DNA of 64,000 bases from Candidatus Aenigmatarchaeota archaeon (GCA_016185435.1 JACPNN010000005.1:22588-86587); one strand, 5' to 3'. Positions 24,275 through 60,072 are shown, counted from the first letter of the stretch. Program-made: numbers and translations. The notes: generated from the sequence alone by a model not told the origin.

Positions 24275-24562
24275 GCCCCAGTAGCTCAGCCGGTGGAGCG
24301 TCACCTTGGTATAAACCCTTTTCTTTTTAAGAAAAAGAAAAGCGAATGGGAGACAGAAGCATATCAGCGGATATGCTTCATAACCAAACGTGGAAAAGAA
24401 AAATAAATGCAAAGGAAGAAGAAAATGATGTAAAACAAAAAGGTGAAGGCCGCGAGTTCAAATCTCCACCCTTTCTTTTGTAAAAGAAAGGGTAGGTTAT
24501 CCAAAGAAAACAGTTACAGAGAGTGAATATAAAATATCCGAGTGAACGTCTCGCCTGGGGCT
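24275..24562 (+). tRNA. tRNA-Thr(GGU) with two introns (24312..24440 at 37/38; 24464..24549 in/after the T-loop)
   Basis: Exons reconstruct a cloverleaf: acceptor gccccag/ctggggc, D-stem gctc/gagc, anticodon stem tcacc/ggtga with loop ttGGTa|a, T-arm gcgag-ttcaaat-ctcgc. All four stems pair perfectly only after removing the two inserts. CCA is not encoded. Confidence 0.6.
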
Positions 24563-24642
24563 TTGTTTTTCTCACTAGCAGCCTGAGAATCCATGCGCCA
24601 ATTTAAGCGGGCAAAAGAAATCTTATTGACCGAAGGGCATAT

Positions 24643-25146
24643 ATGATATCCCTCCCCGCAGGCATCCCAGGCAGGACAGGCCATGCCATAATCATCCTTT
24701 CCCTCATACTTCTCGCTGTCCTCTATTCCCTCACATCAGAGATTGTCAACATGGGCAAAGAGCTCCACAAGAACTGCCCGCTTCCTCCGGGCATGTGCAT
24801 TTTCACAAGGAGCATACCGGTAGAATCAGCACTCGGCCTGATTGCCGTCCTATCCCTTCTTTTTCTCGGCCTGAATATCATAATCCAGGCAAGAAGGACA
24901 AAGTCTGTCAGCTTGCAGAGCAGCCGGAAGCTGACCAAGGCGGCAGAGAGCCTTGCAGGCGACGAGAAGCTGGTTTTCGAGGCAATAGCTGCAGATGATG
25001 GCTTTGCCTTCCAGAATGAGCTTGCCACTAAACTCGGGATGTCTAAAGTAAGGATCACAAGAGCCCTTGACAAGCTGGAGGGCAGAGGGCTGATTGAAAG
25101 GAAGAGGAGAGGCATTACGAACGCTGTTATTCTCAAGCACGAATAG
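24643..25146 (+). CDS. membrane-anchored winged-helix transcriptional regulator (MarR/TrmB-like HTH)
   Basis: Two N-terminal hydrophobic helices followed by an HTH-like region (LATKLGMSKVRITRALDKLEGRGLIERKRRG). Confidence 0.55.
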   Translation: MISLPAGIPGRTGHAIIILSLILLAVLYSLTSEIVNMGKELHKNCPLPPGMCIFTRSIPVESALGLIAVLSLLFLGLNIIIQARRTKSVSLQSSRKLTKAAESLAGDEKLVFEAIAADDGFAFQNELATKLGMSKVRITRALDKLEGRGLIERKRRGITNAVILKHE

Positions 25147-25152
25147 GATGGC

Positions 25153-25728
25153 ATGGAAACTTTTTTAAATAAGGGAGGAGAGAAGGCAGGAATCGAAATA
25201 GCAGACAAAAGGCTATTCCTCAGGTATGCAATACCCTGCACGTCCACACTTGTGAAGAGAGGAACCGTTAAGAAGGAGCTTGTCAATGAGCTTCTTGATT
25301 ATGCTTTGAGAAAGAGGGAAATGCAGACAGATATAAGAGAGACCTTTCCTGTGGCTTACCTCGCCTGCAGGAAAATAGCTCAAAACAGAGGAAAAGGGGA
25401 GATAGGGCCAGAGGAGATAAGGGAGTATTTCTGGAACCTGCATGACGATGTCATCGAAAGGAGATTTGAGGAGAAGAGGGACTTCGACAAGGATGACTGC
25501 AGGATATGGGCCGGAAAGGTGCTGAGGCTGTTGGAAGACAACAGAGCAGAGGTGCTGACCCAGAGGAGAGAGAGAATTTTCAGAAATGCATTCGAGCCTC
25601 ACCTAAAGAAGGATGATTATGTTGTCACCCATTACGATTTCATCACAGAGAAGGTTTCAAGGGAAAATGCAAAAGCGATCTGGGAAGACAAAAACAGGCG
25701 GCTTGGGATAGGGACAACATTCCCATAA
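25153..25728 (+). CDS. hypothetical protein
   Basis: ORF of 191 aa, no recognisable motif. Confidence 0.4.
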   Translation: METFLNKGGEKAGIEIADKRLFLRYAIPCTSTLVKRGTVKKELVNELLDYALRKREMQTDIRETFPVAYLACRKIAQNRGKGEIGPEEIREYFWNLHDDVIERRFEEKRDFDKDDCRIWAGKVLRLLEDNRAEVLTQRRERIFRNAFEPHLKKDDYVVTHYDFITEKVSRENAKAIWEDKNRRLGIGTTFP

Positions 25729-25765
25729 ATTTATATCCCTGAACCAATAAGTATGCGGTGGAAGC

Positions 25766-26680
25766 TTGGAAAAAGAGCAGAAAGGCACAATTCTCGCATT
25801 TATTGCCGCCATAATCAGCGGTTTCGCCATATTCGCCAACAAGATATTCATAGTCGACCTAGAGCCGGTTGTTTTTACAGCAGTAAGGGCAATGCTGATA
25901 GGCCTTCTCTTTTTTCTCCTGTCCTTATGGTCCTTCAATTTTGATCTTTCCGGATTCAGGAAAGCCAGATGGAATTATCTGCTTGCAATAGGCATAATCG
26001 GGGGAGGCCTGGCATTCTATTTATTCTTCAGCGGCCTCAAGCTTACGACTGCGGGAAGAGCAGCCTTTTTGCACAAGACCCTGCCGCTCTTCACAACCAT
26101 TATTGCTTATGTCTTCCTGAAGGAAGCGATAACCAAAAAGCAGCTTATTGCCCTGATTCTCATGCTTGCAGGGGCGCTTGCCATATCGTCCACAGCCATC
26201 TCCCCTGACGCATTCTGGACAAATCCGGCTTTTGGCGATCTGCTTGTGATTGCAGCCACAATACTGTGGGGCGTGGAGAATGTGATTGCCAAGAAAGCTC
26301 TTCTTCAGAAAGAATCCCATTTTGTGGTGATGTTCGGAAGGATGTTCTTCGGCGCTGTCTTCCTTTTCGGAGCAATGCTCCTTTTAGGCAAATTTGAGCT
26401 TCTGCTTATGCTAAAGCAGTCACAAATACTAAACCTCATTGCATCAGCAGCAATACTTGCTGGCTATGTCCTGACCTACTACTGGAGCCTGAAACTCATC
26501 AATGTCTCAAAGGCTTCCACAATCCTCCTGTTTGCGCCGCTCATCACGCTTCTCCTGAGCATGGCCTTCATGGGCGAGCAGCCGCCATTGCTCCAGCTCG
26601 CAGGCTCTGCCCTGATCCTTGCAGGCGCTTTCGCGATTGCCAAAGTGAAGAGCGGGATTGAGCAGCCAAAGGCTGTCTGA
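25766..26680 (+). CDS. EamA/DMT-family transporter
   Basis: ~10 predicted TM helices in two internally repeated halves, typical of EamA. Confidence 0.8.
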   Translation: MEKEQKGTILAFIAAIISGFAIFANKIFIVDLEPVVFTAVRAMLIGLLFFLLSLWSFNFDLSGFRKARWNYLLAIGIIGGGLAFYLFFSGLKLTTAGRAAFLHKTLPLFTTIIAYVFLKEAITKKQLIALILMLAGALAISSTAISPDAFWTNPAFGDLLVIAATILWGVENVIAKKALLQKESHFVVMFGRMFFGAVFLFGAMLLLGKFELLLMLKQSQILNLIASAAILAGYVLTYYWSLKLINVSKASTILLFAPLITLLLSMAFMGEQPPLLQLAGSALILAGAFAIAKVKSGIEQPKAV

Positions 26681-26723
26681 CACGGATTCACACTGAATCG
26701 TCTAAAAATAAGGAGGTGACAAA

Positions 26724-27128
26724 ATGGATCTGAAGAAAGGAGTGATCACAGGCGTTGTTGCAGGAATAGTCATGATAGCGCTGGGCTTCGTCTTCATGGC
26801 AGCCACAGGGACAAGCGACTGGTACCAGAAGACATTCCCGATGATGGTTTCCCAGCAGGCGATGCCATTCTTCATACTGTCCATCTTCCTGGCGGGCCTG
26901 TTCATGGGTCTGGTGTATTCGGTAGTAAACCCCTCGATATCAGGTGCCGGCTGGAAGAAGGGAGCGTATTACGGCCTTTTTGTGTGGCTTCTTGCAGGGA
27001 CGATGTGGCCAGTCATGATGATCGGCTTCGCAGGGATCAACATCTGGCTGGTTGAACTGATAGCAGGCCTGATAGAGTACGCGATAACAGGAGCAGTGAT
27101 TGCCATTGTCTACAGCAAGCTGAAGTAG
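26724..27128 (+). CDS. small integral membrane protein
   Basis: Four hydrophobic segments; good RBS-like ggaggtga upstream. Confidence 0.5.
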   Translation: MDLKKGVITGVVAGIVMIALGFVFMAATGTSDWYQKTFPMMVSQQAMPFFILSIFLAGLFMGLVYSVVNPSISGAGWKKGAYYGLFVWLLAGTMWPVMMIGFAGINIWLVELIAGLIEYAITGAVIAIVYSKLK

Positions 27129-27522
27129 CCGACAGAGAATCTTTACTGGAAGATCAAATGCAAAAAGATACTTGCAGTTTTGTATTCACTGCGCCATAAA
27201 GAGACTGCTTCCTACTGAAAATGATGGTCCAAACAATTACAAAACTTCCGGCAGCAGTCGTCAGTCCTTGGCCTTCCTGTGTATCCAATAGCTCTCGATG
27301 CTGTCAGCGTTTACCCAGTGGGTCTCAGTCCCTCCATCTATCCTGATTGTCTTTGCCCTGTCAATGAATTCGATGTTGTGCCTGTGCAGCTCATATACCT
27401 GGTTCGCCGCAGTCCTCACCATAACTTCCCCGAATTCCTCCACGGCCTTCTTCAGGCTCTCGTAATCTATCATAATCAGGGATAATAAGCAGGGTTAATA
27501 AAGACAGCGGCCAGAATCAGAT

Positions 27523-27912
27523 ATGAGACATGTCATCTATGTCTTCGGCAACCCCCTGCTGAAAGAGGACAGCCTGCCACTTAAATTGCTGCCTCGCCTG
27601 AGAAAAGAGTTTCCTGATATTGATTTTGTTGAACTGGACCCTTCTGACAATATACATGAGCTCGGAAAAGAGCTGATCATACTTGATACTGTGCAGGGAA
27701 TAAGGAAAGTGGAAATTATAGAGAATACCGATTCCATAGAGACTGGTAAAGCTTATTCCCTGCATGACTTTGATCTCGGCCAGAACCTGAAATTAATGAA
27801 AAAATTAGAGCTGATAGAGAGGATAAGGATAATCGGGATACCTATGGGGATGAATAAAAATGAAGCCATAGAGCAAGTAAGAATCATACTGCAAAATCTT
27901 TTTTCAAAATAA
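27523..27912 (+). CDS. putative hydrogenase maturation protease (HycI/HybD-like)
   Basis: N-terminal IYVFGNPLLKEDSLP resembles the GNxLxxDDG motif of [NiFe]-hydrogenase C-terminal peptidases. A hydrogenase large subunit with a C-terminal extension after DPCMSCASH is 3 kb away. Confidence 0.5.
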   Translation: MRHVIYVFGNPLLKEDSLPLKLLPRLRKEFPDIDFVELDPSDNIHELGKELIILDTVQGIRKVEIIENTDSIETGKAYSLHDFDLGQNLKLMKKLELIERIRIIGIPMGMNKNEAIEQVRIILQNLFSK

Positions 27913-27917
27913 TCCTA

Positions 27918-28358
27918 TCAAAATTCCAGCTTATTCACCCACTCGGGTATTTTCCCATCCTCAACCCTGTCATACTGCGGCCAGTATGGCTTGATATCGA
28001 TCACCGGCGTACCGTCCAGAATGTCAAGGCCTTTCACCTTTATCCTGTTGCCCTTATGCCCCATCAATCTGACTGTTGTGATTCCTATCGGGTTCGGCCT
28101 CTGGGGGCACCTGCACGCAAAGATCCCTACAACCGGCACATGGGGGTTGCCCTGCGGCTGATGCTTTATCACATGGCCCTTTACTTTATCCATCCAGTAT
28201 ATTATTATCACATGGGAATAGTCATCAATCCCGTCCAGGGCCCCAGTGAATTTCTCGTCCACAACAATTTCCGAAACCTCATCTGCGAAGCCGCCAAATC
28301 TCGGTTCTTTGATGTTGTTTTTGACGAAGCCTATTGGCCTTAAAGTTATGTCTGCCAT
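27918..28358 (-). CDS. TsaA/TrmO-family tRNA methyltransferase (UPF0066/YaeB)
   Basis: RPIGFVKN...PRFGGFADE...IKPY, characteristic of TrmO/TsaA beta-barrel SAM-dependent methyltransferases. Confidence 0.7.
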   Translation of the reverse strand: MADITLRPIGFVKNNIKEPRFGGFADEVSEIVVDEKFTGALDGIDDYSHVIIIYWMDKVKGHVIKHQPQGNPHVPVVGIFACRCPQRPNPIGITTVRLMGHKGNRIKVKGLDILDGTPVIDIKPYWPQYDRVEDGKIPEWVNKLEF

Positions 28359-28674
28359 GATAATTAGAAGTAAATAAAATCAGACAATTTAAAGGCAGTT
28401 GCAGGAGTTCTCAGCCTATTTGTCCTTCATTGCCTTTGCCATCAGGGTGCATGGATTGTAACTTTATAGTCGGCTATCTGCACGGCATAAAAGTATTGGC
28501 AGAATCGGAAAACTCCATAATGCACACCTTCGTTGACTGAATATTTATCATGGTTTTCCTTCTGCGTGTCTCCTACCTCAAGAATTCCAATGATCCAGCT
28601 TTTTGTGCTGAAATTTTCCGTGTGTTTCAACTCCTATGCAAGCACCCGATGTTTTGTATAAAAAATTCTTGGTC

Positions 28675-30027
28675 CTAAAACAGCCCCCAACTGAAATATG
28701 CCATCCCAGCCATAATAAGTGCTCCAGCAATCGAAATCAATATCCCGGCCTTTATCATTTCCTTCACATGGATATATCCTGTGGAATAGGCCAAAGCAGA
28801 AGGCGGCGTGCCCATGGGGAAGATGAAGTCAAGGCTTACCCCTATGGCCGCTGCAACCACGAGGTTTGTCATGTCAACGCCGAGCATGCCTGACAGGGCT
28901 GTTACTATGGGTATCAGGACTGCTGATGCTGCAGTATTGCTGATGAAGCTTGTCAGGGCTATGCCGACAACTCCCATGGCCAGCAGCACAAAGAAATAAT
29001 GCTGGCCTGCCAGCGAGGAGCCGAGGGAAGAGGAGACAATGTCGTCCAGCCCTGATTTGTCTATGGCCATTCCCAGGGCAATCCCCCCTCCAATAAGTAT
29101 CAGGGAGTCCCACCCCACCTTGTGGAAATCATGTGTATCGATGAGCCTGAACAGGTAAAGCAGGATTATGGGAACCAATGCTATAATGCTGTTATGTATC
29201 CCATGAACACTTTCTGTAACCCAGAGAAAGACTGTCAGGACAAATATTGCGGCTACCTTCTTCTGCTCCAGAGTGAACGGGTGGGGATGCTTTTTTGTGG
29301 CCAGCTTCCTGATTTCAGGCCTGAAAACATGATGGAGTACGAGCCAGCATGCAATGACCATCAGGACCATGAACGGAAAGCCTCTCACGCCCCATTCGAC
29401 AAAGCCGAATGTTATCCCTTTTTCGGCCAGGAATTTCTGGGTGATGACATTCGGCGTGCTGCCTATCAGCGTGCCTATCCCGCCTATGGTCGCCCCATAG
29501 CCGACAGCAAGCACCATTGATTTGGCAAAGTTGGAATGCATCTTCTTTATCCTGTTTTTCCTCAGAAGAATTACGGCTATGGGCATCATGATTGCCGCAG
29601 CAGCGGAATTGCTCATCCACATTGAAAGGAAGGCAGTGACAGCCACTGTTCCCAGCAGAACGGACTTGGCCGAGCTTCCAAACCTGCCCAGCACCTTGTA
29701 ACCCAGATACTCATCAAGCTTATGCCTGCTCATTGCCACTGCTATGGCGAACCCTCCCAGGACAAGGACAACCACCCTGTCAAAGAACTGGGAAAAAACA
29801 GCATCTGCCTGGAATCCCCCGGCAATCACAAGAAGAAAGGCCACAAGCAGAGCAGTAGCCTCAAGGGGCATGGCCTCTGATATCCACAAAGTCATGGCAA
29901 GAAGCGTTATCGCAAGAGTAGCTCTAGCCTGCGGCTGGAGATCAATCGGGAGCACATAAACAAGCGAGAACAGCATAAGTGCAAGAAATATTTTTCCGTA
30001 GAACCATTTTCTGTTCACTTCTATCAC
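28675..30027 (-). CDS. DASS/SLC13-family anion (sulfate/carboxylate) symporter
   Basis: ~450 aa polytopic membrane protein with duplicated halves and the SNxAA-like hairpin motif (SNSAAAAIMMP / SNTAASAVLIP). Confidence 0.7.
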   Translation of the reverse strand: MIEVNRKWFYGKIFLALMLFSLVYVLPIDLQPQARATLAITLLAMTLWISEAMPLEATALLVAFLLVIAGGFQADAVFSQFFDRVVVLVLGGFAIAVAMSRHKLDEYLGYKVLGRFGSSAKSVLLGTVAVTAFLSMWMSNSAAAAIMMPIAVILLRKNRIKKMHSNFAKSMVLAVGYGATIGGIGTLIGSTPNVITQKFLAEKGITFGFVEWGVRGFPFMVLMVIACWLVLHHVFRPEIRKLATKKHPHPFTLEQKKVAAIFVLTVFLWVTESVHGIHNSIIALVPIILLYLFRLIDTHDFHKVGWDSLILIGGGIALGMAIDKSGLDDIVSSSLGSSLAGQHYFFVLLAMGVVGIALTSFISNTAASAVLIPIVTALSGMLGVDMTNLVVAAAIGVSLDFIFPMGTPPSALAYSTGYIHVKEMIKAGILISIAGALIMAGMAYFSWGLF

Positions 30028-30950
30028 TCTTCTTTATAATCTATATATACGCTCCTTCCCTTTACAAACTTCACAGCGGCCAGAGCTGCATTGCATCCCT
30101 CCCCTGCAGATTTCAGGGCCTGGGGATTTCCTCCCGTGCAATCACCGGCTGCAAAGATACCATCAACATTCGTCTTGCCGTCCCTGTCCACAACCACATT
30201 GCCTGCTGTGTCCATCCCTATACCGAGCCTGTTTGAAAAAGCAGAGGCTGAGGCCACACCTACAGCGATGAAAACGCCGTCAAGCTGGGCTTTTGAACCG
30301 TCTGCCATCAGAAGATTCCTGAAGAACCTGTCGCCTTCGAAAGCTGAAATTTTTCCTTCAGTGAAACCGATATTGTTTTCCTTCAGTTTTTTCAAAAGAT
30401 TTTCTGATATCTCAACTGTTTCATCATTCGAAAATATCGTAATATTTTTTGTATAGGACAGAAGCTCCAGAGCTTCTTCAGCCGCATAGTTCCCGTTACC
30501 AATGACAGCAACTTTTTTGCTTTTATAGAAATAGCCGTCGCAGATGACGCAGTAATGGACACCCTTCCCTACGAATGTCTCCTCATTCTGCAGGCCTATC
30601 CTCTTGTACGATTTCCCGCAGGCTATGACGATGGCCTTTGCTTCATACTCGTTTTCGTCAGAGGTTTTGACCCTGAAGCCTTTCTCCTGCCTATCTACGC
30701 TTACCACCTCCTTTTCAAGAACCGCGGCCTTATATCGCTCCGCCTGTCTTCTGGAAGCCTGCTGGAACTCTTCCCCCCCTATGCCCTCAGGGAAGCCGAG
30801 GTAGTTGAACACTCTCTTGGCCTTGGCCATATTGCTTTTGCTCGGGAATCCTAGAACAAGGGTTTTCATATTTGCCCTGGCAGCATACATGCCTGCCGCC
30901 AAGCCCGCAGGTCCGGCGCCTATGATGAGCACATCAAATCCCTCAGCCAT
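30024..30950 (-). CDS. thioredoxin reductase-like FAD/NAD(P)-binding disulfide oxidoreductase
   Basis: FAD-binding motif GAGPAGLAAG, second Rossmann motif IGNGNYAAEEA, redox CxxC (CVIC), C-terminal GDCTGG. Confidence 0.75.
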   Translation of the reverse strand: MAEGFDVLIIGAGPAGLAAGMYAARANMKTLVLGFPSKSNMAKAKRVFNYLGFPEGIGGEEFQQASRRQAERYKAAVLEKEVVSVDRQEKGFRVKTSDENEYEAKAIVIACGKSYKRIGLQNEETFVGKGVHYCVICDGYFYKSKKVAVIGNGNYAAEEALELLSYTKNITIFSNDETVEISENLLKKLKENNIGFTEGKISAFEGDRFFRNLLMADGSKAQLDGVFIAVGVASASAFSNRLGIGMDTAGNVVVDRDGKTNVDGIFAAGDCTGGNPQALKSAGEGCNAALAAVKFVKGRSVYIDYKEE

Positions 30951-32235: not shown

Positions 32236-32303
32236 TCTATCCTCTTCTCCGAATATATTATTGCTTATCTTTTCAAAGTTTATGCAAAATCTTATTAATC
32301 ATT

Positions 32304-33214: not shown

Positions 33215-33331
33215 ATTTATTATTGCCCATTCTCCTTATATCCGCCCTCCCCAAGTGAGATGGACGCCTCCTGCAAATTCCAATCCTCTGCAGGAAGCAT
33301 CCATCACGGGTTAACATACAACGCAATATTA

Positions 33332-44685: not shown

Positions 44686-44900
44686 GGGGTCATGAGGTTA
44701 ATGGCAACCTGGCGGGCTCCAGGCCAGCCTTTCTTTCTCGAAAGAAAGGCTAGGTTACCCAAAGAAAGGAAATACAGATGTTATGCTCGGGAGCATTGAG
44801 CCGACGAGGGAGCTGCCATATGCGGCGAGCATGATGACAGATACCCAAGGCTGTGAAAGGAAGACACCCGTACATGGGAGTTCGAATCTCCCTGACCCCA
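44686..44900 (+). tRNA. tRNA-Trp(CCA) with a 143-nt intron at 37/38 (44723..44865)
   Basis: Acceptor ggggtca/tgacccc, D-stem aggt/acct, anticodon stem gcggg/cccgt with loop ctCCAg|a, T-arm gggag-ttcgaat-ctccc. The intron contains the palindrome cctttctttctcgaaagaaagg and an ATGATGA (box C-like) motif. Confidence 0.65.
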
Positions 44901-45048
44901 TTGCGCACCCCTTTCTTTTAGAAAAAGAAAGGGTACCGCCCTATCCAAAGAAAACCAATTACCTCCACTGAACTTGACATTTCCTGCTCGATATCGGTAA
45001 TTCCTTTTTCTGGATAACCTACCCTCTTTTTTGGAAAAAGAGGGTGGT

Positions 45049-45082
45049 GTACATGGGAGTTCGAATCTCCCTGACCCCATTC
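45049..45082 (+). pseudogene. orphan duplicate of the tRNA-Trp 3' half (34 nt identical to 44870..44903), preceded by an intron-type palindrome
   Basis: gtacatgggagttcgaatctccctgaccccatt repeated. A third partial copy (tctccccattgcgca) lies at 45146..45158. Confidence 0.7.
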
Positions 45083-45573
45083 CCAGAAGGGAGGTATCCC
45101 TTCTATGGTTTACTTCCCTCTGAATACTAATATCAATCTTGATCTCCCCATTGCGCATTCCCTACGCAGAGGGAAGGTATTCCCTCTACCGTCCTACTCC
45201 CTTCAGATTACAAGTATCGCCACCTGTAATCCCTTTCTTTGCCGAACGGGCTTTCTTTTGGAAAGAAAGCCTGTAAAGGTCTACCGCTCTACCCCCAAAA
45301 GAAAAGGCAATACTAATCAGAGAGGTGTAGTATAGGCTTTTCTTCCAGAGAAAAGCCAATTGGAGACAGAAGCATATCAGTGGATATGCTTCATAACCAA
45401 ACGGGCAAAAGAAGGATATACCAATGATAAGCATATCCTTCAGTTGCTGGGGGCTGATAACACTTGGCCAGCCTGTGACAGTGAAGTAAAGACTTCAAAA
45501 AAGTTGGCTGACCAAGTGAAGGGCCCGCAGAGGCCCTTATTGGGATACCTCCCCTCTAGGGAAAGAAAGGCAG

Positions 45574-46032: not shown

Positions 46033-46043
46033 GAATCCTGTCT

Positions 46044-48110: not shown

Positions 48111-48117
48111 GCCTCCC

Positions 48118-51268: not shown

Positions 51269-51542
51269 TATTAAAATGTTGCCTCAAGCCTGCTTAAATT
51301 CATGACATATCGCCAGGAAACTGAGATCATGAGAAGGAAAATGGAGGATGCCAGCAAATTTTTGCCTCCAAAACAAAGCTTATAAATCCCCCTTTCCTAA
51401 AAGAAAACATGAACCAAACGGCATGGCTTCCCAAGCGCAGGATTGATTCTACATACACAGCCTTGCCGGGCTTCTCAATGGCCTGTTATTGATCCTTCAT
51501 CTGTTTCCGGTCAACATATAACCGCTTCAAAACCTGTCGATT

Positions 51543-51932: not shown

Positions 51933-51935
51933 CAA

Positions 51936-52628: not shown

Positions 52629-52660
52629 GACTTAAATACACTTGCCAGCCAAATCAGAAA

Positions 52661-53056
52661 GTGATGGATATGGAAACGGCCCAGGCATATTCTCGGGACG
52701 CAGGGTATGGGATAAAGCAGCCGACTGTAGGCCAGATACATGATGTGAGGTTTCACACCAATGAGATTGTGAGGAAGTTTGAGAGGAAAAGCTCAGGGGG
52801 ATGGGAGGAGAGGCAGCACGAACTTCTGGAGACCCTCCCCTTCGATGTCATGGCAGACATAGGCGGAGAGAAAGTTGTTGTCAGAGGTTCAGTGAAATAT
52901 TCTTCGGCGTCCAGAGAAGAGATGATAAATCATGGAAGGAGCTATAGAGGAAAGCATGTCGAATTTGGAAGCCGCTTTGATATTCCGGACATAATTTACG
53001 GCGGCTTCAGCAGCAAGAGCACCCGCTTATATGAGATCAGAACTATTACAGACTAA
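52661..53056 (+). CDS. hypothetical protein
   Basis: ORF of 131 aa. Confidence 0.35.
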   Translation: MMDMETAQAYSRDAGYGIKQPTVGQIHDVRFHTNEIVRKFERKSSGGWEERQHELLETLPFDVMADIGGEKVVVRGSVKYSSASREEMINHGRSYRGKHVEFGSRFDIPDIIYGGFSSKSTRLYEIRTITD

Positions 53057-53155
53057 AGCGGCAGCTGGACTCCGGGGGTGATTTTTATAGAACACGGCCA
53101 TATACAGAAGAATGGAAGCATACAGACAGAGATAGTCGAGGGGCTGACGTTCTGA

Positions 53156-53632
53156 ATGCTGGAAATCAGCTTCATATTTAAGCAAAGAAACAAACAACTA
53201 TCCATGGAAACTCTAAATGTCAGGATGAAGCTGCTGAAGAAGTTCCTAAGAACGCAGGATTTTGTCAGGGCTGTCTATCTTTTCGGTTCCATGGCAACGG
53301 GAAAATCGTCAAGGCACAGCGACATAGATATAGCTGTTCTCTTTGACAGGAAACTGACAAGGCAGGAAAGGAATGCGAAAGAGCTATTTCTTATAAGCTC
53401 GCTCACCTCAATGCTCGGCAGGGAAGATCTCGATGTAGTCGTGATGAACGATGCTCCGCTCCTCCTGAATTTCAACATAATAAGGGATGGGAGGATTCTT
53501 TATTGTAAAAGCAGCCGCGAGAAAATACAGAACGAGGTAAGAATCATGTCATCTTACCTTGATAGGGATTATTACGATTCCCTGTTCATAAAAAGGGATT
53601 TTGGCAGGATAAGAAAAGAGGGGATACTGTGA
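53156..53632 (+). CDS. nucleotidyltransferase (MntA-like antitoxin)
   Basis: LFGSMATGKSSRHSDIDIAVLFD. Confidence 0.8.
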   Translation: MLEISFIFKQRNKQLSMETLNVRMKLLKKFLRTQDFVRAVYLFGSMATGKSSRHSDIDIAVLFDRKLTRQERNAKELFLISSLTSMLGREDLDVVVMNDAPLLLNFNIIRDGRILYCKSSREKIQNEVRIMSSYLDRDYYDSLFIKRDFGRIRKEGIL

Positions 53633-54051
53633 TAAAAGAGATACACGCCAAGCTGAGAGAGCTAGAAAGGCACACAAAGTTTCTCCAAGAATGCACAAAG
53701 TATTCTGCCAAACAGCTTGAGGAAGATATGCTGGCAAGAGGCGCTGTAGAGCGGTATCTTCAGCTTGCAATAGAAATGGTTATCGAAATCTCCGAGATTC
53801 TTATTGCAGGGAAGGGCTTCAGGAAGCCGGAGAAATACAGGGATGCAATCCTTATCCTCGGTGAGGAAGGTATCCTGCCGAAGAGCTTTGCTGAAAAATT
53901 TGCGCCTTCGGCAGGCTTCAGAAACATCCTCGTTCACCATTATTCCGATGTTGACGTGCACAAACTGCACAGCTTTCTGAAAAATGACATCAAAGATTTT
54001 GACTCCTTTGCGAGATACATAGTAAAATATCTTGAGAAGCAACTCAAATAA
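53629..54051 (+). CDS. HepT/DUF86 HEPN-family toxin
   Basis: Rx4HxY motif (RNILVHHY). Overlaps the MntA stop. Confidence 0.75.
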   Translation: MIKEIHAKLRELERHTKFLQECTKYSAKQLEEDMLARGAVERYLQLAIEMVIEISEILIAGKGFRKPEKYRDAILILGEEGILPKSFAEKFAPSAGFRNILVHHYSDVDVHKLHSFLKNDIKDFDSFARYIVKYLEKQLK

Positions 54052-54093
54052 GGCTGCAGGATCCCGGCAGAACTCCAATATTAATGATCTGGC

Positions 54094-55188
54094 ATGAAGC
54101 CCTCAATCGACCCCTGGGGAAAAGGAGAGGTGAAGGATTACGGCAGGCTCATGGAGGAATTCGGTTTGAGGCCATTCGATGATTTCATAAAAAAACTCCC
54201 GGATCCTCCTTTGCTCATAAGAAGAGGCGCTGTGTATGCGCATAGAGACTTTGAAAGGATACATTCTGCAATAAAATCAAAAAAGCCCTTTGCCATGATG
54301 ACAGGCCTCATGCCTTCAGGCAAGTTCCATCTGGGCCACATGATGGTCGCCCAGCAGATTGTCTATTATCAGAGTCTTGGGGCCCATGTTTTCGTTTGTG
54401 TTGCCGATGTGGAGGCCTATAATGTCAGGAGGATGCCTTTTGATGAATTGAGAAGAACAGCAATTGAAGAATACCTGATCAATTACATAGCATTGGGATT
54501 AAGGCCGAAGAGCTGCACATTCTATTTCCAGTCGGCTCATACCGTTCCTTATTACAGACTAATTTCCATGCTTCCAAGAAGGACAACGCAGAATGAATTC
54601 GAGGCCATATACGGCACTTTCGATCCCCAGAAGCTGATTTCTGTTTTCTACCAGATAGCGGACATCCTCCATCCCCAGCTTCCCGATTATCTCGGGCCTC
54701 TCCCCCTTGTCGTGCCTGTAGGGGTGGACCAGGACCCTCACATAAGATACACAAGGGACATCGCCTCGAGGATAAACGAATTCAGATTCATTCCGCCTTC
54801 ATCAACCTACCACAAATTCGCCAAAGGCCTTCAGGGAGGCAAGATGAGCTCCTCAGATCCCACAAGCTATATCGCTCTGACAGACACGCCTGAAGAGGCC
54901 AGAAAGAAAATCATGAAGCACGCATTTTCAGGAGGCAGGGACACAGTGGAAGAGCACAGGAAGCTTGGGGCCAATCTGTCTGTCGATGTGAGTTATGAAT
55001 ATTTGTATTATTTGTTCGAAGAGGATGACAGGAAAATGAAAAAAATAACAGAGGATTACGGCTCCGGGAAGATGCTTACCGGAGAGGTGAAGAAGTTTCT
55101 TTCAGAAAAGCTGGAGAAGTTCCTGATCAGGCATAGAGAAAAGAGAGAGAAAGCTATTGATTTGGTACCTAAGTTCTTGGAGAAATAA
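54094..55188 (+). CDS. trpS: tryptophanyl-tRNA synthetase (archaeal type)
   Basis: Class I motifs HLGH (FHLGHMMVAQQ) and KMSSS. Size and N-terminus are consistent with archaeal/eukaryal-type TrpRS; TyrRS is not fully excluded. Confidence 0.75.
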   Translation: MKPSIDPWGKGEVKDYGRLMEEFGLRPFDDFIKKLPDPPLLIRRGAVYAHRDFERIHSAIKSKKPFAMMTGLMPSGKFHLGHMMVAQQIVYYQSLGAHVFVCVADVEAYNVRRMPFDELRRTAIEEYLINYIALGLRPKSCTFYFQSAHTVPYYRLISMLPRRTTQNEFEAIYGTFDPQKLISVFYQIADILHPQLPDYLGPLPLVVPVGVDQDPHIRYTRDIASRINEFRFIPPSSTYHKFAKGLQGGKMSSSDPTSYIALTDTPEEARKKIMKHAFSGGRDTVEEHRKLGANLSVDVSYEYLYYLFEEDDRKMKKITEDYGSGKMLTGEVKKFLSEKLEKFLIRHREKREKAIDLVPKFLEK

Positions 55189-55263
55189 TTCAATTTCTGC
55201 AATCCCTTTATTCGAATAGACTCGCCTTTTTTTCTGAAAAAATCGATGCACCTTGCACGGTAG

Positions 55264-55421
55264 CAGGCCCGACGGGATTTTCGTCTTGGGTATTTTCCAG
55301 ATAGATGTTTGTATTTCCTTTTTCTGGATACCCTACCCTCTTTTTTGGAAAAAGAGGGTGGTGTCGAACCCGTATCCCCTGCTCCGGAGGCAGGTGTTCT
55401 ATCCGACTGAACTACGGGCCT
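55264..55421 (-). tRNA. tRNA-Arg(CCG) with an 86-nt T-loop intron (55279..55364)
   Basis: On the minus strand: acceptor aggcccg/cgggcct, D gttc/gaac, anticodon stem cctgc/gcagg with loop ctCCGga, T-stem acggg/cccgt, and T-loop ttcga|at restored only after excising the insert. The insert begins caccaccctctttttccaaaaaagagggtagggtatccagaaaaagg. Confidence 0.5.
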
Positions 55422-55473
55422 AATATACCTTTCTCTGCTTCTTATATCCCTTTGCGGCCTAAATTATACTATT

Positions 55474-55762
55474 GCGGGGGTTCCCGAGAGGCCAAAGGGG
55501 CGGGACTTAAGAAAACCTTTTCTTTTCCAAAAAGAAAAGGTTTTATCCAAAAGAAAACAAATGAAAAACAAGCGCTTGCGGAAAAGAAAACAACATACAG
55601 AAATCTTAAGTATTGAGCGAAAGCTGTGAAATAAGAGATCCCGTGACTTAGTGTCTTCGCAGGTTCGATAGGCTTTCTTTTCAGAAAAGAAAGCCCATAC
55701 GGCAAAGAAAACATAATACAAAAACTGAAACAATAACCAGAACGAAAATCCTGCCTCCCGCA
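55474..55762 (+). tRNA. tRNA-Leu(UAA) with two introns (55512..55637 at 37/38; 55669..55747 in the T-loop)
   Basis: Acceptor gcggggg/ctcccgc (one G-U), D ccc/ggg with long D-loop, anticodon stem cggga/tcccg with loop ctTAAg|a, long variable arm (tgacttagtgtcttc), T-arm gcagg-ttcga|at-cctgc. Confidence 0.6.
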
Positions 55763-55784
55763 CTGACCCAATATGCAACAGGCT

Positions 55785-57983
55785 TTAGGCGGCACCCTTC
55801 TTTCCGAATTTCCCCTGGAGAAACTCCACAAGGGTGGTGTGGCCCCTCAGGCCGAAGTGGTAGAAAGTGATGTCGTTCTTCCTGCAGTGTCTTTTGAGCT
55901 GGTAGTAGATGGGATGATACACTGATGCGACCACACATACAACGGCATCCTCCTGGCCGATGCCGGAGATATCCTTTCTTCTATTGAACTCGTCAAACAC
56001 CTCCACTGGCGTGTCAACGGCATGCTTTATCTTCTCCGACACATCATGTCCGTACTGGCCTCCCCAGACGATTATCCTTTTGTAGGAGGGCCTTTCTTCT
56101 CCGGCAGACAGTCCGGCTTCACGGATTACTTCTCCAGCAGGGGCAGGAGGATAAATATCTACATGCAGAAGGCTGCCGATTTCCCTATATATATTTCTGC
56201 TTTGTGATCTGGCAATTTCATGCAGTTTGCCGCGAAAAGCATCATCATTGAGCCTGGATTTGTAGGCCAAGAACAGAGAATAGTCGCTGAGGATGAGCTC
56301 ATAAGCCTTTGTGCCGCCAAGCCCAACCGCGTCCCTGCAGAAATCTTCCAAGGATTCCCTCCGGTTTACCCATATGTCCCTCAGCCTTCTGGAACTGGAG
56401 GGGCCGAGGGAATTGTAGGTTTCCCTTACAAGACCGACAACTTCAGGCCCTGCGCCTGACTTCTCCAGCTCCTGCATCATGGCTTCATGCCAGCCTGCAC
56501 GCTTTTTCTTAGACTTCATTTGCGTCTGTTCAGCCTTGGCCGGAGATCTTTCAGCCCTGAGCAGATTCTCTACCAGCTGGTCCGCAGAAAGAGAATCAGA
56601 CACCCAGGAGAGCCCTCCGTCGTCCAGCTGCCTCAGCTTCTGCCTCAGTTTTTTGAGCTCTTCAGCGGATGGCATATATTCCCCTATCATCAGCAGGGCC
56701 AAGGTCTTGTTGCTTTCAGAGGCAGCCGCTGAAGCCAGATAGTCGCTGATAATAAGATCCGCCAGATGGTAATGCTTCGCGATGTCCAGAAGCCTCCCGG
56801 CATTCGGGTCGACAAGGATGTCAGGCCCGTTCCTTAGAATACAGGCGGCTGCCTCCGCCTGTCCGGAGACTGATGCGATTTCCTGCACCAGATCAAGAAG
56901 ACTCCCATCCCTCAGGCCCCATCCGATATCGGCTGTTGTCAGCAGGAACTCATTGTATTCCTTCGCCGAAACCTGGACCCTGCGGAGCCCTTTGTAAACG
57001 CTGGCGGCAGCCGGCCTGCGTGCGAGATAGTCAAGGATCTCCATCTTCTGATCTGCACCGGCTCCGGAAATCAGATGCCATATGGTGTGCGCGTCCGCGT
57101 TATGAGCCTTCAGCCTGCCTGTTCTGTCCGCGACAAAGGAAACGATCTCAGGTCCTTTCATCTCAGCTTTCCTGAAGCAGTCGAGGATTGCCAGTTCCTC
57201 ACTCCCCCCGAGAGCGATATATGCATCCTTTGCCTTCCCCACCCTTTCATGGGCAATTTTCGCGTCCTCGATGTTGCTGACAAAAGCAGACAGCGGAATC
57301 ATGTGAGCTACGCGTTTCCGTTGACCGGCAGTTAACAGACCCTTGATGTCACTGACAATGGCATTCTCCGGAGTCATGTACCCAGTACCGGCTATAGGAT
57401 CGCTTGTCTCTTTCCTGAATTCCCATATGAAATCGGCGACATACCTCTGAGCCGCCCCCTCCCCTCCCTTCTCAAAAACCTCCCTGAAATGTCCTGCTGC
57501 ATCATGCAGGTAGCCAAGGCTTTCTGTTTCATACAAATCCATTGTGTGGTTCACCAGCATTGTGTAGTTCATGAGCCAGCTAAAACCAGGAGTGTCGATG
57601 AAAGATGTGTCGGCAGCCTCAGGCCCAAGCGCAGACCTCAATGCCTTTTTCAGACTCTGAAAATCCGCAGAGGTTTCCGCCACTTTCTGCGCCACAGGAT
57701 TTGCCCTCATCCTGTCCAGCCAGCCCTCGTATTCTGTCACAGCCCTGTCCAGGTCATCAAGCGCTTCACCATACTTCCTGCTGACTTTGAAAGCTTCTTC
57801 CAATGCTCCAAGAAGTTTGAACATCGGCTCAGCACGCACCAGGTCACCGTATGATTTGGCCTCCCATTCGGCTATGCCGTATAGGTGCTGGAGCGCCTTG
57901 ATCGCAACGCTCTTGTTTCTCTTCTTTTTTTCCTCAAATTCCTTCAGCCAGCTTCTTCCTTTCCAGAAGGACTTGCCTGCCAT
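55785..57983 (-). CDS. large hypothetical protein (732 aa)
   Basis: Long ORF, comparatively GC-rich. No family recognised. Confidence 0.5.
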   Translation of the reverse strand: MAGKSFWKGRSWLKEFEEKKKRNKSVAIKALQHLYGIAEWEAKSYGDLVRAEPMFKLLGALEEAFKVSRKYGEALDDLDRAVTEYEGWLDRMRANPVAQKVAETSADFQSLKKALRSALGPEAADTSFIDTPGFSWLMNYTMLVNHTMDLYETESLGYLHDAAGHFREVFEKGGEGAAQRYVADFIWEFRKETSDPIAGTGYMTPENAIVSDIKGLLTAGQRKRVAHMIPLSAFVSNIEDAKIAHERVGKAKDAYIALGGSEELAILDCFRKAEMKGPEIVSFVADRTGRLKAHNADAHTIWHLISGAGADQKMEILDYLARRPAAASVYKGLRRVQVSAKEYNEFLLTTADIGWGLRDGSLLDLVQEIASVSGQAEAAACILRNGPDILVDPNAGRLLDIAKHYHLADLIISDYLASAAASESNKTLALLMIGEYMPSAEELKKLRQKLRQLDDGGLSWVSDSLSADQLVENLLRAERSPAKAEQTQMKSKKKRAGWHEAMMQELEKSGAGPEVVGLVRETYNSLGPSSSRRLRDIWVNRRESLEDFCRDAVGLGGTKAYELILSDYSLFLAYKSRLNDDAFRGKLHEIARSQSRNIYREIGSLLHVDIYPPAPAGEVIREAGLSAGEERPSYKRIIVWGGQYGHDVSEKIKHAVDTPVEVFDEFNRRKDISGIGQEDAVVCVVASVYHPIYYQLKRHCRKNDITFYHFGLRGHTTLVEFLQGKFGKKGAA

Positions 57984-58100
57984 GCTTAGAATTGTGTGCT
58001 AATTTTTTTAAGGCTTCACCAATGCGCTTATCCCAAAACTGCATGCAGAAAGCACAAAAAACAAGCCTTTCCGTTTATTTCCCGCCGTGTCTAAAACAGC

Positions 58101-59456
58101 TCACCTGTACCCTTTTTTCTTCCCCACATACTCCTTCCTCGAGCCCGCATACCCCACATCGCCTGTCCCGTAGAGGCTGAGGCCTTCTCCCATGCTGCTG
58201 CCTTTGGACGCATATCTGTCCTCCTTTTCTGATGCGGCCTCCTGCTGCCATGTGACCTTGAATGTATCCTTCACCTCATAGGGATTATCTATATGGAAAG
58301 GGGCTGGAGTGGAAATGCTCGTATGGAATTTCCAGAGGACATTCCCGTCCATCGAGAGGGCATACAGGTTGCCGTCCCAGCCGCCGAAGATTATCTTTTC
58401 TCCCGCGACAGTCGGCGTGCCCACAACCAGCGATCTGGTGTTGAACTTCCATTCCAGATGGCCTGTCTTTGCCTTCACAGCATACAGATTGTTGTCAGCA
58501 GAACCGAAAAATAAAAGTCCGCTGCCAATATCGGACCCTATCCCAACCCACTCGTTTGTCGTGAAGGTCCAAAGGCGGCTGCCTTCCAGGGAAACAGCAT
58601 GCATCACCCCGTCCCTTCCGCCAAGGTATACGGCATCTTTTGTGACAAGCTGGCCATTGTCCTGCGGAGAATTAGTCGGATACTTCCATATCAGCTGCCC
58701 ATTTCCGGCATCCACCGCATAGAGGTTCTTGTCGAAGGAGGAGAAGTAGACAACACCGTCCTGATACGAGACCCACATGATTATTTCCCCCTTTGTAGGG
58801 AAGGTCCATAAGAGCCCTCCATTCTCATCCACAGCATATAAGTTGTAGTCGTAGCTGCCGAAATATATCACTCCGTTGCCGTATGCGGGCCCTGAAGACA
58901 CAGGCCCCTTTGTCCTGAAGGCCCACTGCTTTTCACCATCAGAATTGACAGCGTAAAGGTTCTTGTCCTGCGAGCCGAAACAGATCATATCATCCACAAC
59001 CAGAGGCTTGCTGAATATCTTTCCTGTGGTCCCGAATTTCCAGAGCAGATTCCCCTCAAGGTCAAGGGCATAGAGGATGTTGTCATAGGAGCCAAAATAC
59101 ACCGCTCCTCCCGCAACTGTTGCATTCCCGCATATTGGCCCCTTTGTAGCAAACCTCCACAGTTCCTGCCCTTTCTCTGTCAGGCAGTAGAAGTTCTTGT
59201 CGCATGCGCCAAAGTATATCCTCCCATTGCTCCACTGCGGCTTGGATTCAATGCTCCCACCTTCTCCTATCTCCCAGTTCAAGGTCTTGCCTGAAGTGAC
59301 TGCCTGCAGCACCATATCGACAAGCTGGAAGCTGCCGAAGCCGCTGACATCGGCCGACAGCGAGGGCCCTGATGTGCCGGTCCCATATGTCTGGTAGCGC
59401 ATATATATGATTGTTTTTGCTTCTTTAAAATATCGCATCTGTCTGCTACTATCCAC
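58101..59456 (-). CDS. PQQ-like beta-propeller repeat protein (BamB/YVTN-like)
   Basis: Repeated NLYA(V/L)...G...LW(K/T)F motifs (PQQ-enzyme-repeat-like). Confidence 0.75.
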   Translation of the reverse strand: MDSSRQMRYFKEAKTIIYMRYQTYGTGTSGPSLSADVSGFGSFQLVDMVLQAVTSGKTLNWEIGEGGSIESKPQWSNGRIYFGACDKNFYCLTEKGQELWRFATKGPICGNATVAGGAVYFGSYDNILYALDLEGNLLWKFGTTGKIFSKPLVVDDMICFGSQDKNLYAVNSDGEKQWAFRTKGPVSSGPAYGNGVIYFGSYDYNLYAVDENGGLLWTFPTKGEIIMWVSYQDGVVYFSSFDKNLYAVDAGNGQLIWKYPTNSPQDNGQLVTKDAVYLGGRDGVMHAVSLEGSRLWTFTTNEWVGIGSDIGSGLLFFGSADNNLYAVKAKTGHLEWKFNTRSLVVGTPTVAGEKIIFGGWDGNLYALSMDGNVLWKFHTSISTPAPFHIDNPYEVKDTFKVTWQQEAASEKEDRYASKGSSMGEGLSLYGTGDVGYAGSRKEYVGKKKGYR

Positions 59457-59495
59457 TTAAGCCTTTAAAAGCCAGCACATATTAATCTTATCCAT

Positions 59496-59512
59496 GGCCT
59501 CGTTGGTGTAAT
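59496..59512 (+). pseudogene. orphan duplicate of the first 17 nt of tRNA-His, fused to an intron-type palindrome module
   Basis: ggcctcgttggtgtaat is identical to 59617..59633, followed directly by ccgccctctttttccaaaaaagagggcaggttgcccagaaaaagg. Confidence 0.6.
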
Positions 59513-59616
59513 CCGCCCTCTTTTTCCAAAAAAGAGGGCAGGTTGCCCAGAAAAAGGAATTACATGTACTAAACATGCAATTTCAACTAATACGAGACCT
59601 GAACAATAAGGCATAT

Positions 59617-60072
59617 GGCCTCGTTGGTGTAATGGAAGCACAGAAGCCTGTGGGCCACCCTCTTTTTCCAAAAAAGAGGGTAGGATATCCAGAAAAAGGC
59701 AATGCAGATGTCGTAAGTAATAACAAATTACGGCATGGCTGCTGGGGGTTAATAAGGGCTGCTCATCATGAGTGATGGCATGCCTTCGCAAGAGCGAAGC
59801 GCACCGCTGGAGGCCCCTTTCGTATAAGCTCAGCAGGAAGCAAGGGGTACTATGGGGATGCGCAGCCTTTGGCTGGCATGCCTTCGCTTCAGCGAAGTGC
59901 ACAGCATGTCCCCATGCAGAAAGCTTCTAGCCTGGGTTCAAATATAGGCTTTTCTTTTGAAAAGAAAAGCCCATTCGGCAAAAGAAACATAATACATCTG
60001 TTGAATGGGTCGATAGCCCATTCGGCAAAGAAAACAGATACCGGATGTATATTGAAAATCCCAGACGAGGCC
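59617..60072 (+). tRNA. tRNA-His(GUG) with two introns (59654..59921 at 37/38, ~268 nt; 59944..60059 in/after the T-loop)
   Basis: G-1 paired to C73 (His identity element). Acceptor gcctcgt/acgaggc, D gtgt/gcac, anticodon stem gaagc/gcttc with loop ctGTGg|a, T-arm ctggg-ttcaa|at-cccag. All stems are perfect only after removing both inserts. Confidence 0.55.

Follow-up and report, generated by a model that had tools for sequence, protein, structure and literature searches.

The stretch of DNA analysed here, 64 kb from the genome of an uncultivated DPANN archaeon, a Candidatus Aenigmatarchaeota archaeon (referred to as the window, always at this full length), contains five disrupted tRNA genes, and inside their introns and next to their exons lie copies of a small structured repeat, which we call the module. 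Together with a further 10 kb upstream on the same contig, 74 kb of this genome were sampled, and about 20 related loci from other genomes served for comparison. ARAGORN and Rfam, run with default settings on the unspliced window, report no tRNA at all. The five genes are tRNA-Thr(GGU) at 24275-24562, with three exons and introns at 24312-24440 (tRNA position 37/38) and 24463-24548 (59/60); tRNA-Trp(CCA) at 44686-44900, with an intron at 44723-44865 (37/38); tRNA-Arg(CCG) at 55264-55421, with a T-loop intron at 55278-55362 (59/60); tRNA-Leu(UAA) at 55474-55762, with introns at 55512-55637 (37/38) and 55670-55748 (59/60); and tRNA-His(GUG) at 59617-60073, with an encoded G-1 and introns at 59654-59921 (37/38) and 59943-60058 (59/60). 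The tRNA-Arg gene is on the minus strand and the others are on the plus strand. No further tRNA genes were found in the window, and the extra 10 kb contains neither tRNA genes nor module copies.

The introns were delimited independently by bulge-helix-bulge (BHB) geometry and then checked through in silico splicing. The rule places each cut after the second nucleotide of a 3-nt bulge, builds the 4-bp central helix from the last exon nucleotides and the 3' end of the intron, and takes the anticodon stem or the T stem as the outer helix; the output of a permissive BHB scan was too noisy to use. After splicing, all five genes are recognised as tRNAs by ARAGORN (Thr-ggt, Trp-cca, Leu-taa, His-gtg and Arg-ccg), the tRNA-Thr product being 73 nt long, and exon 1 of tRNA-Arg gives a sub-threshold Rfam tRNA match of 27.8 bits. 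The central helix is fully paired (4/4) in six of the eight introns, including both introns of tRNA-Leu, and 3/4 paired in the remaining two; in tRNA-Thr the values are 3/4 and 4/4, with an H1 of 5 bp. The outer helix, formed by the anticodon or T stem, has 5-6 bp in all eight introns, and the inner helix consists of 0-3 bp with the 3' part of the intron or has the module hairpin in its place. The analysis thus demonstrates valid spliced tRNAs and a cis BHB geometry at every junction.

Each of the eight introns sits either at 37/38 or in the T-loop at 59/60, and the latter site is the exact structural counterpart of the former because the T arm is likewise a 5-bp stem with a 7-nt loop. The central helix of each of the four T-loop introns pairs T54-T55-C56-R57 with YGAA, after which come two nucleotides and T60; an intron with such a 3' end, YGAA+NN, would be compatible with any tRNA's T-loop. 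DPANN archaea are known to have tRNA genes so heavily disrupted that standard predictors miss them (PMC5829648), and the window genes resemble them in having multiple BHB introns at non-canonical positions. That study catalogues intron positions and splicing endonuclease types and describes no conserved intron-borne module.

Such a module is present in every one of the eight introns (8/8), starting 1-6 nt past the splice site, as the initial annotation had proposed with coordinates correct to within 1-3 nt. In total the window holds 13 complete and two hairpin-less copies. The intronic ones are of C-type in the first tRNA-Thr intron (24318-24410, with the hairpin at 24318-24342, the mirrored tail at 24394-24403 and a second hairpin in its long linker), of A-type in the second tRNA-Thr intron (24464-24517; hairpin 24468-24493, tail 24503-24510), in the tRNA-Trp intron (44724-44775; hairpin 44726-44751, tail 44761-44767), in the tRNA-Arg T-loop intron (55311-55361, minus strand) and in the first tRNA-His intron (59655-59705), A-like in the first tRNA-Leu intron (55513-55557), and of B-type in the second introns of tRNA-Leu (55671-55719) and tRNA-His (59947-59995). 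Apart from the tRNA-Arg copy all of these are on the plus strand, and in both tRNA-Leu introns the module helix begins at intron nucleotide 2.

The intron-less solo copies claimed earlier also exist. A copy with an A2 linker at 44909-44962 (plus) lies in the 3' trailer of tRNA-Trp, 8 nt past the discriminator, and is also found in the orthologous locus L062; it forms an inverted pair with an A-type copy at 44997-45047 (minus), which is missing in L062. Further downstream come an inverted B-type copy at 45226-45271 (minus), a hairpin-less A2 linker with tail at 45280-45313 (plus), which adjoins the inverted B copy as a remnant and corresponds to the latter half of the 3' solo copy in L062, and a C-type copy at 45335-45421 (plus). 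At tRNA-His, an A-type copy at 59513-59563 (plus) follows a 17-nt duplicate of the 5' end of the gene and is missing in the orthologous loci L065 and L066, while a hairpin-less B linker with tail at 60015-60041 (plus) follows a T-loop-like fragment, GGGTCGA-TAG, and is orthologous to the one tail that L065 has. The copies listed in the initial annotation were all real, and the list had left out the hairpin at 55335-55359 (minus, in the tRNA-Arg intron) and the copies at 45280-45313 and 60015-60041.

The copies are not random. An exhaustive scan of the 64 kb for perfect palindromes placed the family hairpins at 24318, 24468, 44726, 44909, 45021, 45249, 45335, 55335, 55515, 55671, 59515, 59657 and 59947 and nowhere else, and all copies in the window and the extra 10 kb belong to the five tRNA loci. 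The pattern of an A-type hairpin end followed by a tail has six matches, against 0.00 expected from 100 dinucleotide shuffles. Each of the 11 all-pyrimidine/all-purine hairpins has a mirrored tail, on exactly one side, while 200 composition-preserving block shuffles yielded a mean of 0.02 such hairpins and none with a tail.

The module is about 50-90 nt long and its parts follow one another in a fixed order: a flank (T)(CT)CC, the hairpin, a linker, a second clamp, a purine tract (the tail) and WWTAC, the last being present in the copies from both Aenigmarchaeota and Altiarchaeota. The hairpin has a perfect stem of 9-12 bp made of a GC clamp and a T/C tract, with a pyrimidine 5' arm (arm 5) and a purine 3' arm (arm 3). 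Four linker types can be told apart: A, (T)AGGnTAT; A2, TACCGSCCTAT; B, CATAC or CRTTC; and C, about 50 nt long with a second conserved hairpin, GAAGCATATCAGYGGATATGCTTC. This anatomy comes from 26 oriented copies of the window and other genomes, supplemented by six from orthologous loci to 32 for the mirror analysis. The hairpin occurs in 21 distinct sequences with compensatory CG to GC and TA to CG changes. RNA folding of the modules gives z-scores from -3.5 to -5.2, with the hairpin dominating the predicted folds; the CC of the flank is predicted to pair with the GG of the linker, with an A bulged out between them, and in all two-dimensional predictions the purine tract is single-stranded. 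Rfam scans of the tRNA loci, E-value scans included, and of two Altiarchaeota loci returned no relevant match for the module, in agreement with the initial annotation, whose author was aware of no described element with such an architecture.

The main structural point, absent from the initial annotation, is that the tail mirrors the purine arm of the hairpin: the purine tract is the reverse, not the reverse complement, of arm 3. If arm 3 is written as A(b)-G-A(a)-clamp and the tail as clamp'-A(a')-G-A(b'), then a' and a agree in every one of the 27 parsed copies, among which a is 1, 2, 3 or 4 and all four linker types are represented, and b' follows b with a deviation of at most 1. When arm 3 and tail of the 25 distinct variants are each read from their clamps, 184 of 197 positions are identical. 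Their G residues coincide 25 times, against no more than three times with the tail displaced by 1-2 nt and no more than nine times in direct orientation, and in none of 20000 permutations of tails among copies was the observed value reached. The mirror match extends over 7-11 nt and the GC clamp lies outside it; in the first tRNA-Thr intron the tail GAAAAGAAAAA equals the reversed arm 3 across 11 nt. The orientation and shift controls rule out that the tail is a direct repeat of arm 3, and in the CCCTCTTTTT/AGAAAAA class the tail cannot form Watson-Crick pairs with arm 5.

Orthologous comparisons at tRNA-Trp, whose intron has counterparts in L062 (JAIYGZ01) and L063, show in the aligned sequences that the mirror relation is maintained in place. 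Compared to the window, the C/G pair in the L062 intron sits one position farther on in each of the three strands, arm 5, arm 3 and tail; in the L062 copy of the 3' trailer, arm 3 and tail have changed jointly while arm 5 has not, which leaves a C.A mismatch. Covariation in the module is demonstrated for two strands as well as for three.

A hairpin whose purine strand is mirrored by a purine tract has, by definition, the motif of a class II (purine-motif) intrastrand triplex, which on the complementary strand is the class IV pyrimidine motif (PMC4666352). The module has, on one strand, a pyrimidine domain, then a Watson-Crick complementary purine domain and, 3' of both, a third domain that is the purine mirror image, which would give A.A-T and G.G-C triads in antiparallel orientation. 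The loops agree in part: loop 1 (1-5 nt) fits the 1-6 nt described (ITxF) and loop 2, which with the clamp included measures 8-13 nt or about 50 nt in the C-type, is too long. We infer that a triplex forms physically, probably in single-stranded DNA. Since RNA is reported not to form triplexes of the purine motif (PMC4666352), the fold would more likely occur in single-stranded DNA that is exposed when DNA is replicated or transcribed. Read as the pyrimidine type, the antisense strand could also explain the two clamp positions in the A-type copies.

Repeats of this architecture have been characterised in bacteria (Hoyne and Maher 2000, as cited in PMC4666352), namely the BoxC/PIT/TMECO elements, which form triplexes in vitro, have been connected with genomic instability, have neither promoter nor terminator activity and come without a transposase (Holder et al. 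2015, PMC4666352). Like the module, they consist of a pyrimidine domain, a loop, a complementary purine domain, a loop and a mirrored purine domain; they are dispersed as highly similar non-coding copies, sometimes in inverted pairs, without an associated transposase, and their flanks are unusually rearranged among close relatives. The likeness is one of architecture only, as the module sequences do not match the TMECO/BoxC consensus CCCTCNCCC-N3-6-GGGNGAGGG-N3-GGGNGAGGG. The module also differs in being archaeal and A/T-rich with a single G marker instead of G/C-rich, in having its GC clamp outside the mirror and a second loop of 8-13 or about 50 nt instead of 1-6 nt, and in its strict sense orientation and its place, both immediately 3' of tRNA exons and within BHB introns; in the 2015 paper on TMECO, tRNA is never mentioned. 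By the evidence of sequence, the best reading of the module is an archaeal A/T-rich analogue of these bacterial repeats.

A different logic had been suggested in the initial annotation, where two variants of the palindrome were described as exact reverse complements and RNAs carrying them were proposed to pair in trans over ~23 bp, as in split-tRNA joining, or to fold as hairpins. Under split-tRNA logic each exon would be a transcript of its own that is ended by a palindrome. The T-rich hairpin after each exon would suit such an arrangement, and a 3' exon with its YGAA could, by inference, pair with a 5' piece over ~16 bp. However, the two variants turned out to be one palindromic element on opposite strands, not two complementary partners, and the exons of each gene are collinear and closely spaced, within 0.15-0.46 kb, with each intron forming a cis BHB with its own exon. 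The promoter box of this genome, YTTTWAAR about 30 nt upstream of genes, is missing after the tail and upstream of internal exons, and the tail with WWTAC was rejected as a promoter candidate as it is unlike the upstream regions of 44 genes. Known split tRNAs have long leader duplexes, whereas the complementarity of H2 and leader is 0-3 bp here. The split tRNA genes of Nanoarchaeum equitans and Caldivirga maquilingensis are similar insofar as their exons lie apart and are joined through a BHB; the window genes differ by their collinear exons, the lack of separate promoters and of long complementary leaders, and their predicted cis splicing. Joining in trans is, in our opinion, scarcely credible.

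The relation of the module to splicing is closer. In five of the eight window introns the module helix, flank pairs included, starts at intron nucleotide 2, the first position past the 5' bulge and the one where BHB helix h' must start; in two it follows a 3-bp inner helix with the 3' part of the intron (CTC:GAG and ATA:TAT), and in one it follows five unpaired nucleotides. In the orthologous introns of L062 and L065 it likewise starts at nucleotide 2. We take it that the hairpin would supply helix h' or stack on it, producing a three-way-junction version of the BHB. One could argue from this that the module acts as RNA, as a structured intron or trailer domain that aids the splicing endonuclease or the ligase, or else keeps introns stable once they are excised or circularised, with hairpin and purine tail possibly forming an RNA triple helix or a protein-binding platform. 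The start of the helix exactly where h' begins, the strict sense orientation, the single-stranded tail in all two-dimensional predictions and the conserved WWTAC behind it are in line with such a role. However, RNA reportedly does not support triplexes of the purine motif (PMC4666352), the three imperfect hairpins show C.A mismatches on the sense strand and not G.U, copies also occur outside introns and inverted, and orthologous introns are spliceable without the module. In the more distant relative JACQOC01, tRNA-Leu(UAA) has introns at both same sites and at a third, all with GC-rich hairpins and no module, and its tRNA-Trp has a module-free 37/38 intron with a GC-rich hairpin. An RNA-level function as the primary explanation is thus rather improbable.

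Two side observations concern splicing. The tRNA-Leu(UAA) ortholog of L013 (6158-6395, plus), from a GC-richer Aenigmarchaeota metagenome-assembled genome (MAG), has three module-free introns, and in its T-loop intron the A2 linker TACCGCCCTA stands between GCCCTTC and CTTCCC, a mirror of the pyrimidine type that is explained equally well by the plain hairpin CGCCCT/AGGGCG. On the related contig L064, genes for Archease and the tRNA ligase RtcB (870-2735) lie beside a GTPase ortholog, with no tRNA at the site.

To see how widely the module occurs, pattern scans covered 185,579 species genomes and public metagenomes. It is present in the Altiarchaeota MAGs NJEG01 and JAYEGX01 (L007, L009), the Aenigmatarchaeota MAG JAZDGV01 (L006), two unclassified archaeal MAGs, CAYJTA01 and JAOZNG01 (L005, L008, L010, L011), and four distinct metagenome contigs (L018, without the 5' arm of the hairpin, L025/L051, L028/L057 and L035); 39 of the 45 metagenome matches were an unrelated, highly sampled bacterial gene. 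In viral contigs the A pattern has no match and the B pattern a single chance match in coding sequence, and no real viral or plasmid matches were found. The proposal that the element is specialised for tRNA loops is not supported: at six loci outside the close relatives of the window genome (L007, L009, L011, L025, L028 and L035) it stands 3-7 nt past the discriminator of complete tRNA genes, and in CAYJTA01, whose proteins are 86-91% identical to those of the window, three copies lie after protein-gene ends or between convergent genes.

These positions would speak for a primarily functional 3'-end element of tRNA units and some mRNA units, with intronic copies being trailer sequence trapped after rearrangement; the T-rich 5' arm would be the archaeal oligo-T terminator and the hairpin and tail a stabiliser or processing signal. 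The sense orientation that the module always has agrees with this, as does arm 5 (CTTTTCTTTTT, CCCTCTTTTT), which resembles the terminators of module-less tRNA genes (TTTGTTTTTCTC, TTCTTTTTTT, and CTTTTCTTTTT in L063). On the other hand, eight copies are intronic, where termination would destroy the tRNA, and in L028 and L035 the T-runs come after the module, which places it within the transcript. Moreover, BoxC/PIT elements have no terminator activity (PMC4666352) and the mirror tail would be left unexplained. A 3'-end function of this kind is possible, although unlikely. As to the trailers themselves, the notion that trailer copies sit in a BHB of the tRNA 5' leader and 3' trailer was rejected by hand, as the tRNA-Trp leader has no complement to the trailer.

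Some of the loci with modules have peculiarities of their own. In the Altiarchaeota-type loci L007 (3476-3620), L009 (about 1940-1790, minus) and L011 (3510-3650) a conserved element of about 130 nt (...GGATGGGTT...GGGGAARGCRCCCTTACYTNGCAATCCC) follows the trailer module; a direct repeat of the tRNA 3' end, 18 nt long, forms its end and is complementary to its 5' part, and it shows no BHB and no Rfam match. It resembles either a miniature integrated element or a tRNA-like minihelix. In L006 (3150-3340, plus) the intron of a tRNA-Glu-like gene contains a pair of modules, of which one is inverted. For its anticodon stem no 3' strand was found, a GTCGGC direct repeat standing there instead, and the gene, which is not reconstructable, may be a pseudogene, split or otherwise rearranged.

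Comparison of close relatives demonstrates that introns and modules are polymorphic. The T-loop intron of tRNA-His is shared by the window and CAYJTA01 (L065) and is precisely absent from JAIYGZ01 (L066). The first tRNA-His intron measures 268 nt with an A-type module in the window, against 66 nt with another module type in both relatives, and in the second a complete second unit has been inserted ahead of an older tail. Among the three closest genomes only the window has the 17-nt tRNA-His 5' fragment (59496-59512, plus, identical to 59617-59633, with a promoter-like CTTTAAAAG upstream) with its module, and a block of 190 nt past tRNA-Trp that is missing in L062. This block comprises the inverted module and, abutting it at 45049-45081 (plus), an exact second copy of the 33-nt tRNA-Trp 3' segment at 44870-44902 (plus). 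Exon-fragment repeats of 17, 33 and 12 nt adjoin solo copies, nested copies occur, and hybrids are found at 45226-45313 (inverted B beside a hairpin-less A2 tail), at 60007-60041 (T-loop exon fragment with a hairpin-less B) and in L005 (half a B hairpin fused to an A module). Inverted module pairs exist at 44909/45021 and in L010. The hybrid and nested copies, together with the intron and block polymorphism, point to recombination or template switching at modules rather than to cut-and-paste with defined ends. The propagating behaviour proposed earlier is supported by these differences in intron presence, module type and duplicated exon fragments.

Several side observations belong to the same introns. 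When introns are allowed, ARAGORN (44686-45079) joins the tRNA-Trp 5' exon to the duplicated 3' segment at 45049-45079 and not to the proximal one, so that a spurious 300-nt intron could enter automated annotation. Within the tRNA-Trp intron, 44826-44884 (plus) gives a weak C/D-box snoRNA-like Rfam match (E 0.45) with a C-box-like GCATGATGACAG, and may be a C/D guide RNA, such as is known from archaeal tRNA-Trp introns. The first tRNA-His intron carries a GC-rich insert of about 215 nt (59706-59921, plus), missing in the 66-nt orthologous introns, in which the unit TGGCATGCCTTCGC-n5-GCGAAG-YGCAC occurs twice (at about 59774 and 59873); Rfam has no match for it.

Duplicated tRNA segments are also what one would expect if the modules were ends or remnants of an integrative element or of a miniature inverted-repeat transposable element (MITE) that targets tRNA genes and is mobilised in trans by an enzyme encoded elsewhere, an integrase or transposase. 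Inserts with modules are bordered by directly repeated tRNA segments (17, 33 and 18 nt), inverted module pairs are seen at the two places given above, the one in the window with a flanking repeat of 33 nt, a published survey found a very high MITE density in Ca. Altiarchaeum, and L009, from an Altiarchaeota MAG, has a group II intron domain (5836-5912, minus, 45.7 bits), which means that a reverse transcriptase may be available to that genome. MITEs, and likewise the repetitive extragenic palindromic (REP) sequences and bacterial interspersed mosaic elements (BIMEs), resemble the module in being short, palindromic and non-autonomous, with nested or clustered copies at gene 3' ends. However, the introns have neither terminal inverted repeats nor a constant target-site duplication; the junction offset varies from 1 to 6 nt, the mirror tail is not a feature of REP sequences or MITEs, and the insert boundaries are points of module-module recombination. 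The 30 window open reading frames (ORFs) scanned include no transposase or integrase and no REP-associated tyrosine transposase (RAYT), and viral or plasmid matches are lacking as stated. Insertion of the IS200/IS605 type, guided by a hairpin into a fixed target, was rejected: the 5' flanks have no common tetranucleotide and the offset varies. We hold the origin from an integrative element or MITE to be unlikely.

A parallel is offered by the tRNA introns of Thermoproteales, which, according to what PMC4090602 relates of Fujishima et al. 2010, are near-identical in different tRNA genes, in canonical as well as in non-canonical places; as presented there, they imply a DNA-level gain by an unknown mechanism that preserves BHB junctions. 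The module introns share with these transposed introns, as far as that account goes, a common sequence across tRNA genes at both kinds of site. They differ from the crenarchaeal case by their DPANN host and in that the common part is a structured module at the 5' end of the intron, which also occurs outside introns. The module is best regarded, at these loci, as the conserved 5' part of a family of mobile-looking BHB introns, and we would class it with the repeats of intrastrand triplex type, as a new form that is archaeal and associated with tRNA.

Taken together, we consider it somewhat more probable than otherwise that we are dealing with a composite: a non-autonomous archaeal repeat of the triplex type that colonises the 3' sides of tRNA exons, in BHB introns, and is prone to recombination. 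In an Aenigmarchaeota-like DPANN lineage the module would have colonised the DNA directly 3' of tRNA exons, where it is found in sense orientation, and inside genes it would be carried in ordinary protein-spliced BHB introns at 37/38 and in the T-loop at 59/60, an insert tolerated because it is spliced out. Two properties would make it harmless: the hairpin at or near intron nucleotide 2 would supply the inner helix or stack on it, and the 3' end of the intron bears 4 nt that would pair with the exon loop (YGAA+NN in T-loops). Copies would be turned over by recombination or template switching at the hairpin or triplex on the DNA level, with no dedicated transposase encoded nearby, so that introns would be gained and lost, modules swapped, copies nested and exon fragments duplicated; the structure may promote its own duplication through stalling and template switching.

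Several facts weigh against this explanation. The clamp adjoining the tail is Watson-Crick complementary to the clamp of arm 3 and does not mirror it, so that only 7-9 canonical triads remain, and the second loop (8-13 nt, about 50 nt in the C-type) exceeds those of described intrastrand triplex motifs. A fold on the DNA level also sits uneasily with the strict sense orientation after exons, which suggests a constraint related to transcription or RNA. Part of the covariation is due to replacement of whole units and not to change in situ, as in the second tRNA-His intron; an inner helix supplied by the hairpin is a three-way junction and not a textbook BHB; and module-free orthologous introns (L013 and L063) imply that the module is not needed for splicing. 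Finally, the sample is small, consisting of the 74 kb of this genome and the related loci.

A bolder version of this explanation would make the three-stranded self-folding cassette itself the cause of intron gain. It would stall replication or transcription beside highly expressed tRNA genes, the template switching thus provoked would copy the cassette into the anticodon loop or T-loop, sometimes with exon fragments, and the hairpin at nucleotide 2 together with the YGAA end would render the insert spliceable at once. We hold this to be an unlikely course of events, though one worth keeping in mind. If true, it would provide a transposase-free mechanism for the "intron transposition" of Thermoproteales, which has been inferred but never explained, and the module would be a natural, selected intrastrand triplex in Archaea.

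The ORF scan of the window yielded housekeeping genes for CysRS, TrpRS, FtsZ, the mevalonate pathway and a hydrogenase. One window protein is 100% identical to a database protein of a Candidatus Aenigmarchaeota archaeon, and the homologues of two others mostly bear the label Aenigm(at)archaeota. A free-standing ORF of 348 aa at 78-1124 (minus), adjoining the PGK and CysRS genes, contains a LAGLIDADG_3 homing-endonuclease-like domain (E 7e-6) and has no evident intron or intein context. At 17497-17550 a 21-nt palindrome, ATTGATACTAACAGTATCAAT, stands in two tandem copies where two ORFs meet, and an operator-like function is conceivable. About 60 nt (...CTTAAACCGGGCAAGTACAATATAGATGTCACCAAGCTGTTCGCCCAGAAACCGCTTGTCATA) are repeated almost identically at about 39342 and about 41046 (minus), 1.7 kb apart, and the divergent tRNA-Arg and tRNA-Leu genes have one common palindromic promoter-like segment between them, CTTCTTATATCCC / GGGATATAAGAAG (55421-55474).

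The practical consequence of these findings is that all five tRNA genes of the window are invisible to ARAGORN and Rfam defaults, and recognising the module would help to complete the tRNA sets of DPANN archaea. More generally, the range of intrastrand triplex repeats, whose role is not clear and which had been characterised in bacteria alone, is extended to Archaea with a specific genomic niche. The origin of the protein-spliced tRNA introns of archaea is an open question, and their "transposition" has been inferred from similarity with the mechanism unknown. Here what the introns have in common is a module of defined structure that covaries over three strands, is also found outside introns and is gained, lost and swapped among close relatives. 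The finding therefore gives a concrete handle on the origin and spread of tRNA introns in archaea, and testable predictions follow from it, which concern triplex folding, stalling of replication or transcription, the substrate needs of the splicing endonuclease and insertion polymorphism at the population level.

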